Positions 53,537 through 54,579 of a stretch of 64,000 nt of DNA are shown here, in pieces (the first letter of the stretch is position 1; each line of letters starts with the position of its first letter). The stretch is from the NCBI GenBank assembly GCA_012295275.1, contig CM022677.1, positions 17,236,001-17,300,000 on the forward strand. Direction: 5' to 3'. Made by a program: the position numbers and the translations under genes. The notes beneath the pieces are model-generated. The model was not told where the DNA came from and did no database searches. It worked only from the letters and a program-made list of their open reading frames with translations. The stretch is from Chrysomallon squamiferum. Its lineage: Eukaryota > Animalia > Mollusca.

Positions 53537-53554
53537 CTTCTTCACTTCCAGACC
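53537..53554 (-). CDS. Microexon 4 (18 nt, phase 1-1), GSGSEE
   Basis: ctttattcag|GGTCTGGAAGTGAAGAAG|gtacga. Confidence 0.75.
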
Positions 53555-53832
53555 CTGAATAAAGGAAAATAGACAAACATGTATTTTTATTATTTACTAT
53601 GCATATTATTATTTATTTTTTCAAATTGTTAATAAAAATACCTTCTACTTCTAATATATATATACATATATAGAGAGAGAGAGAGAGAGAGAGAGGGGCT
53701 TATTGCTGCTGCTATTACTACTAACACTACTCCTATGATTACTACTACTACTAATAATAATATTACTAAACATATTAAATATGAAGCTGAAATTTATTTT
53801 TAGAAGTAAAAAAAATAATAACATATTCATAC

Positions 53833-53850
53833 CTTCTTCACCGCCAGACC
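53833..53850 (-). CDS. Microexon 3 (18 nt, phase 1-1), GSGGEE
   Basis: ctttattcag|GGTCTGGCGGTGAAGAAG|gtatga. Confidence 0.75.
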
Positions 53851-53949
53851 CTGAATAAAGAAAAATAGAGACACATGTAGCTTTATTATTTAGTATGCAT
53901 ATTATTATGTACTTTAGCAAAGTGTTAATAAAAATACCTACTATGGCTA

Positions 53950-54044
<95 letters not shown>

Positions 54045-54063
54045 CAGCTACTGCTATTCCTAT

Positions 54064-54127
<64 letters not shown>

Positions 54128-54217
54128 TATAATAATAATAATAATAAGTAATAATATTAAATATGAGCATAAACTGAAGTTTATTTTGAATAGAAAAAAA
54201 TTATGATACATTCATAC

Positions 54218-54235
54218 CTTCTTTGCTGCCAGACC
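54218..54235 (-). CDS. Microexon 2 (18 nt, phase 1-1), GSGSKE
   Basis: ctttattcag|GGTCTGGCAGCAAAGAAG|gtatga. Confidence 0.75.
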
Positions 54236-54561
54236 CTGAATAAAGAAAAACAGAACACATGTATTTTACAAAACTGTAATACCTACTATTGCTAGTAGAT
54301 GACAGAGAGAGAGACACCTACTACTGCTAATAATAATAACTACTATTACTACTATTACTGCTGTATACCCCTACTAAACTATACCCCTACTGAACTATAT
54401 TACTACTAACACTACTATTATTCCCACTATTTCTTTAAGTGTTACTGGTATTAACCATTAGGAAATATGACAGTCTTCTTATATAATAATAATAATAATA
54501 ATAACAACAACAACAAAAAGAAGAAGAAAATCACAATTGGTAATAAATATTGTAATCTTAC

Positions 54562-54579
54562 CTTCTTCAGATTCAGACC
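54562..54579 (-). CDS. Microexon 1 (18 nt, phase 1-1), GSESEE
   Basis: ctttattcag|GGTCTGAATCTGAAGAAG|gtaaga. Confidence 0.75.

Follow-up and report, generated by a model that had tools for sequence, protein, structure and literature searches.

The window analysed here, a stretch of 64,000 nucleotides from the genome of the snail Chrysomallon squamiferum, carries on its minus strand the 3' part of a gene whose 5' part lies beyond the window, upstream of position 64000. Exon A (62661-62849, phase 0-0), whose boundaries were taken from the sequence, encodes part of a GON domain (Pfam PF08685, E 9e-08, 32.7 bits against a cut-off of 22.6), and exon B (61789-61921, phase 0-1) encodes the C-terminal end of that domain, matching profile positions 160-193 of 199 with a score just below the cut-off (E 1.3e-4, 22.3 bits); together the two exons correspond to the second half of Pfam GON. 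A repeat of about 60 nt, present in several copies at about 62870-63300 on the same strand, reaches the acceptor of exon A. Five further minus-strand exons of 183-198 nt, each of phase 1-1, have W-x-x-W, Cys and Arg columns in common and encode TSP1 repeats 1 to 5: exon C (60319-60501), exon D (58622-58819), exon E (57671-57859), exon F (56465-56659) and exon G (55183-55365). Taken alone, exon G matches Pfam TSP_1 (22.1 bits, cut-off 21.6) and exons C to F give no match; a profile built from all five retrieves TSP1 proteins, and exon F finds TSP1 clusters in the ESM Atlas at 0.90-0.94, values that the tool's recognition measure rates as weak. Exon D is divergent, keeping the Trp, Cys and Arg columns and carrying an aromatic-rich stretch in place of the usual Pro/Gly-rich loop.

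Between exon G and the end of the gene lie four exons of only 18 nt, also on the minus strand: m1 (54562-54579), m2 (54218-54235), m3 (53833-53850) and m4 (53537-53554). A sequence-only reading of this DNA had drawn attention to them, and our sequence scan and translation bear out its coordinates, its splice signals, its phases and its peptides, which are GSESEE, GSGSKE, GSGGEE and GSGSEE, respectively. Each copy is preceded by TTTATTCAG, begins with GGTCTG, ends with GAAG and is followed by GTA, while the introns m1-m2, m2-m3 and m3-m4 measure 326, 367 and 278 nt. All four are of phase 1-1 and continue the frame of exon G into the terminal exon; each is a frame-keeping coding exon below about 30 nt flanked by AG and GT. 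Allowing up to three mismatches, the 22-base pattern common to the four copies has 4 matches in 64 kb, and none of 100 shuffles reached four (mean 0.00), which rules out the array as a chance pattern. A looser scan, for an AG preceded by pyrimidines and followed by 18 nt and GT, gave five matches, the four of the array and an unrelated one at 22925. The genomic microexon motif had no match in metagenome contigs.

The gene is predicted from its sequence to finish in a terminal exon at 53174-53359, which would read G-E-L-stop and be followed, some 170 nt on, by an AATAAA at 53179. Spliced from exon A to this terminal exon, the model gives 450 residues within the window with no stop until the G-E-L-stop after the microexons, and the frame is also kept when all four microexons are skipped. 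A second acceptor resembles that of the terminal exon, both reading ttcag/GCGA; it opens an in-frame end of 34 codons with two Cys at 51936-51836 on the minus strand, followed by AATAAA at 51827 and 51742, and may be a possible alternative last exon or a product of chance. Inspection by eye of 31 candidate acceptors down to position 40000 yielded no convincing downstream transmembrane exon, which would have turned the tail into a syndecan-like stalk. Because TSP1 and GON are extracellular modules, we infer entry into the secretory pathway, and the domain content suggests that the protein is probably secreted.

Elsewhere in the window, no other gene was recognised between positions 1 and 53000 in a Pfam scan of 73 of the 99 complex open reading frames, an approach that would miss short exons. 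That scan passed over the exons of the gene itself and most frames from satellites, and the two Pfam matches among the 73 were rejected, both lying in repeats. Minisatellites occupy 14710-19807 (39-nt unit, 135 copies), 23895-25415 (27-nt unit, 55 copies) and 39218-39828 (41-nt unit, 15 copies). A satellite of about 20-nt units at about 43900-47550 contains repetitive reading frames, with a spurious sub-threshold match to Pfam DUF1619_N.

Evidence from RNA comes from one low-depth contig in one of six matching runs, all of which had small word shares (0.02-0.07). This contig, from run X1 (231 nt, depth 2.8), covers exon G with one mismatch; on one side it continues into the end of exon F, with one difference near the contig's end, and on the other it runs directly into the whole of m1 and then the two bases GG. 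Thus m1 is a spliced exon. Microexons m2, m3 and m4 all begin with GG, the terminal exon begins with GC and a retained intron would begin with GT, so the GG after m1 probably belongs to another microexon rather than to the terminal exon or an intron, a distinction that turns on a single base where the contig ends. The RNA mapping proposed in the sequence-only reading places m1 in a transcript, whereas m2, m3 and m4 were not individually seen and the two bases would fit any one of them. Among four runs searched, exon G was covered in X1 and not in X2, X4 or X5; the terminal exon was uncovered in X1, X5, X6 and X3, an absence that carries no weight in either direction, and these four runs gave no cover of the junction between m4 and the terminal exon. 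A second, deeper X1 contig (617 nt, depth 28.5) resembles exon G over 35 nt (55233-55267), with 4 differences, and looks like a paralogue or a chance match.

The closest relatives of the protein are gastropod TSP1-repeat proteins that carry the automatic labels 'coadhesin-like' and 'SCO-spondin-like' and share 35-39% identity with it over the TSP1 repeats. We looked up ten of them: nine ranked among the ten best BLAST matches, and one was selected because its alignment ran into the tail. Names from Gigantopelta, Haliotis, Babylonia or Pomacea are attached to nine of the ten, and the remaining one falls in a cluster with a Haliotis protein. Although the coadhesin-like proteins are the best sequence matches, over the TSP1 repeats, they have neither a GON match nor an acidic G-S-G tail and are not orthologues. 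More broadly, no orthologue was found, since none of 214 proteins examined, mostly TSP1 relatives, matches the GON exons or carries an acidic G-S-G repeat or tail. Single-exon protein searches gave no match among 6 candidates for the GON exon and none among 4 for exon G, the ESM Atlas returned no usable match for the GON exon, and profile searches recovered generic TSP1 proteins only, among the best 150 of 2788 and 67 of 1650 candidates. The domain order across 55183-62849 on the minus strand is GON, five TSP1 repeats and acidic tail, and no protein among the matches listed in the single-exon, BLAST and profile searches has the same GON-first layout; nor did we find, in the open-access literature, a paper on a mollusc GON-TSP1 protein so arranged. 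ADAMTS9, ADAMTS20 and GON-1 likewise combine a GON domain with TSP1 repeats, but in ADAMTS9 and ADAMTS20, as described in the available text of one report, the GON domain follows the TSP1 repeats and ends the protein (PMC4349717), whereas here it precedes five of them and an acidic tail. We rejected orthology to ADAMTS9/20 on this reversed domain order, and the layout suggests that the gene possibly represents an undescribed gastropod family.

The introns of the array record how it grew. The intron between m2 and m3 aligns with that between m3 and m4 at 84% over 141 nt (E 2e-40) and at 72% over 103 nt (blastn), and the segment 53555-54217 on the minus strand, with m3 between the two introns, is made up of the paralogous halves of a duplicated exon-plus-intron unit. 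The intron between m1 and m2 shares shorter blocks with the m2-m3 intron (E about 6e-9), and the array introns carry simple repeats in the same order. Paralogous intron thus surrounds the exon copies in the m2-m4 units, while m1 resembles the others only at its splice sites and exon. These alignments indicate that the repeated unit is the exon together with its intron, duplicated in tandem. They uphold the proposal of the sequence-only reading that exon duplication adds sites, and they contradict its description of the exons as sitting among unrelated microsatellites; its further statement that the introns had diverged is true of the flanks of m1, where no detectable similarity is left, and untrue of m2-m4. 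A probable order of events has m1 splitting off first, its introns no longer aligning, followed by m2 and then by m3 and m4.

Whether selection has held the copies together can be judged over the oldest of these splits. Compared with the other copies, m1 is identical at 14-15 of 18 acceptor positions and 12-15 of 18 exon positions, and its flanks beyond the splice signals are at shuffle level in five of six comparisons (139-208 of 300 shuffles reach the score, as against 15 of 300 in the sixth). This pattern of sequence identity does support selection for splicing between m1 and the rest. The exons of m3 and m4 are identical at 16 of 18 positions, barely above the identity of their introns, and because the two values are so close this likeness is no evidence of selection. 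The argument that conserved splice sites imply selection, made for the whole array in the sequence-only reading, consequently holds for m1 against the rest and not within m2-m4, which are recent duplicates with introns still alike. All four copies agree at 15 of 20 acceptor columns, 12 of 18 exon columns and 5 of 6 columns of the donor, whereas in the more distant flanks, compared without gaps, the figures are 1 of 20 and 4 of 21. The third codon positions of GGG, TCT and the last GAA do not vary, and differences cluster in the middle of the exon; m1 differs from the others by 3-4.5 nonsynonymous changes over about 14 sites and 0-1.5 synonymous changes over about 4, too few sites to test. The visible constraint appears to bear on splicing more than on the peptide.

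The youth of m2-m4, which could have kept intact splice sites without selection, bears on whether these copies are used at all. It is conceivable, though we think it unlikely, that only m1 and perhaps one more copy enter the transcript, the rest being leftovers of recent duplication, seldom if ever spliced, or else used singly. Introns that are still 84% alike would be expected to retain intact splice sites without selection, the RNA identifies m1 only, and mutually exclusive tandem-duplicated exons are known, if rare, as the accessible text of one study records (PMC9741552). Against such disuse, introns of 278-367 nt should pose no steric bar to the inclusion of neighbouring exons, the acceptor of m2 has been kept although large indels have altered the intron upstream of it, and the RNA contig runs from m1 into an exon that starts with GG.

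If all four microexons are included, the protein would end in 28 residues of which 10 are acidic, 1 is basic, 9 are Gly and 7 are Ser. Three G-S-G sites, one each in m2, m3 and m4, are preceded within five positions by 3, 1 and 2 acidic residues, and the composition of the stretch points to disorder, which would place each Ser-Gly in an acidic, disordered context. In human chondroitin sulfate glycoproteomics, so far as the consulted part of the report extends, GSG is favoured over SG, acidic residues lie mostly N-terminal to the Ser, and all sites fall in disordered or low-complexity regions (PMC10424144), in agreement with the earlier claim that acidic G-S-G is the preferred context of attachment. 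A snail genome, in the portion of its published analysis available to us, encodes the whole heparan sulfate pathway and the means to build chondroitin sulfate (PMC10295696). Attachment of glycosaminoglycan (GAG) to the tail is plausible on these grounds. The E-G half of the motif arises because the phase-1 junction of an AAG exon end with a G exon start gives E-G, K-G or Q-G; the joints of exon G with m1 and of m4 with the terminal exon also read E-G. Every exon, exon G included, ends in GAAG and places a Glu at position -2 of every Ser-Gly site whichever exons are skipped, so skipping alters the number of sites and hardly their nearest acidic residue. The idea that each site draws its acidic residues from the preceding exon is accordingly right about the Glu at the junction, but of little consequence.

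The same residues admit another use. The exons may be real and carry no GAG, contributing instead an acidic, flexible end whose S-x-E motifs a Golgi kinase of the FAM20C type might phosphorylate, enabling it to bind calcium or surfaces, with E-E-G in part a splicing signal; we consider this quite possible, though we would not expect it to prove correct. S-x-E is the phosphorylation motif of the Golgi kinase FAM20C, and GAAGAAG resembles a purine-rich splicing enhancer. The full tail has three S-x-E motifs, in m1, m2 and m4, so that m1, which has no Ser-Gly, is explained too; the invariant third codon positions point to constraint at the nucleotide level; and E-G is forced at phase-1 joints, including the two at the ends of the array. 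What this account leaves over is the Ser-Gly itself, which splice signals do not force and which m2-m4 nonetheless retain although the third position of the Gly codon and the codon after it have changed, and the preference of attachment for E-G-S-G in disordered, acidic surroundings, within the covered part of the human data (PMC10424144).

The sequence-only reading had gone further, suggesting that splicing counts out the chains, and one of its premises is sound: any microexon can be skipped in frame, all 16 inclusion patterns keeping the frame and yielding 0-3 Ser-Gly sites. Tissue- or stage-regulated skipping of m2-m4 would then set the number of chondroitin or heparan chains from none to three, with duplication raising the maximum. 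There are precedents, in the parts of the reports consulted, for GAG sites set by splicing (PMC4314671; PMC4859157) and for repeat numbers set in the same way (PMC2576457). The single X1 contig, however, includes m1 and shows no branch to the terminal exon and no skipped form, although at its low depth it is too thin to exclude one, and frame symmetry is also what allows a duplicated exon to survive. Neural microexons regulated by eMIC/Srrm234 are described, in the available portion of that work, as having UGC near the 3' splice site, an enrichment rather than an absolute feature, and a long AG-exclusion zone (10.1101/2021.02.24.432780). The microexon acceptors here lack these features: none of the four has UGC (TGC) between -30 and -3, and their AG-free zones of 23-40 nt are unremarkable; they are as rich in pyrimidines (15-16 of 18 positions) as the acceptors of the six large exons B-G (9-18 of 18). 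We rejected eMIC-type regulation on this basis, other regulators being possible, and judge it improbable that the array works as a regulated counter, which would be a special case of the reading that we prefer.

That preferred reading, to which we assign a probability of roughly 45%, is that a tandem-duplicated microexon array adds an acidic tail, which probably accepts GAG, to a probably secreted GON-TSP1 protein. Tandem duplication has given a gene with a GON domain and five TSP1 repeats four copies of an 18-nt exon and its flanking intron at its 3' end; with m2-m4 included, the four microexons would add a 24-residue acidic Gly/Ser tail; and once the protein entered the secretory pathway, xylosyltransferase would prime the serines in E-G-S-G, giving up to three predicted GAG chains. 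The genomic copy number of the exon would fix the number of sites, with in-frame skipping possible and not needed. Set against this are the points that the one copy seen in full in RNA, m1, lacks a Ser-Gly, that the m2-m4 splice sites may be intact through youth, that the three S-x-E motifs could be phosphorylated instead, and that the 214 proteins examined offer no counterpart of the tail.

The array illustrates how a glycan- or phospho-acceptor tail may grow on an extracellular protein, six residues at a time, by duplication of a symmetric microexon, the splice junction supplying E-G. Such exons are probably missed by gene predictors, and invertebrate proteoglycan core proteins may consequently be undercounted. 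Other proteins are already known to have GAG sites under splice control; if skipping here were regulated and the sites used, the locus would provide control of GAG number in unit steps, finer than the on/off and block switches that we found in print, whereas short of such proof it is an ordinary small array of duplicated microexons. Among the matches listed in our search of the open-access literature, we found no report of a microexon array that sets GAG number or of one exon per GAG site.

Several known systems share parts of this arrangement. The closest architectural analogue is SmPoMuc of Schistosoma mansoni, also built of tandem units of a short exon and an intron, in which, according to the consulted sections of its description, a 27-nt exon and its intron are repeated in tandem with microsatellites between the units, each exon encodes one glycosylation repeat, and the number of repeats varies by splicing and is linked to predicted glycosylation (PMC2576457). 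There, up to 20 units are more than 93% identical, the glycans are mucin-type O-glycans and transcript variation has been shown; the snail array has four C-terminal units that are more diverged and carry predicted GAG sites, and we claim no homology. Schistosome MEGs, as far as the available text describes them, are secreted proteins with short symmetric exons, mostly multiples of 3 (10.1101/2023.06.21.545858), but they consist almost wholly of 10-20 micro-exons, whereas here microexons make up 72 of at least 1350 coding nucleotides and form the tail of an ordinary multidomain gene. Exon choice creates or removes GAG attachment in L-APP/appican (PMC4314671), versican V0-V3 (PMC4859157) and CD44 through exon v3 (PMC2199889), each on the evidence of the portion consulted; these are on/off or large-block switches in which splicing and glycans are both proven, in contrast to the snail sites, which are predicted and each lie in their own duplicated 18-nt exon. 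By this comparison the snail array would be SmPoMuc-like in layout and, if used, appican- or CD44v3-like in effect, while belonging to none of these systems by homology.
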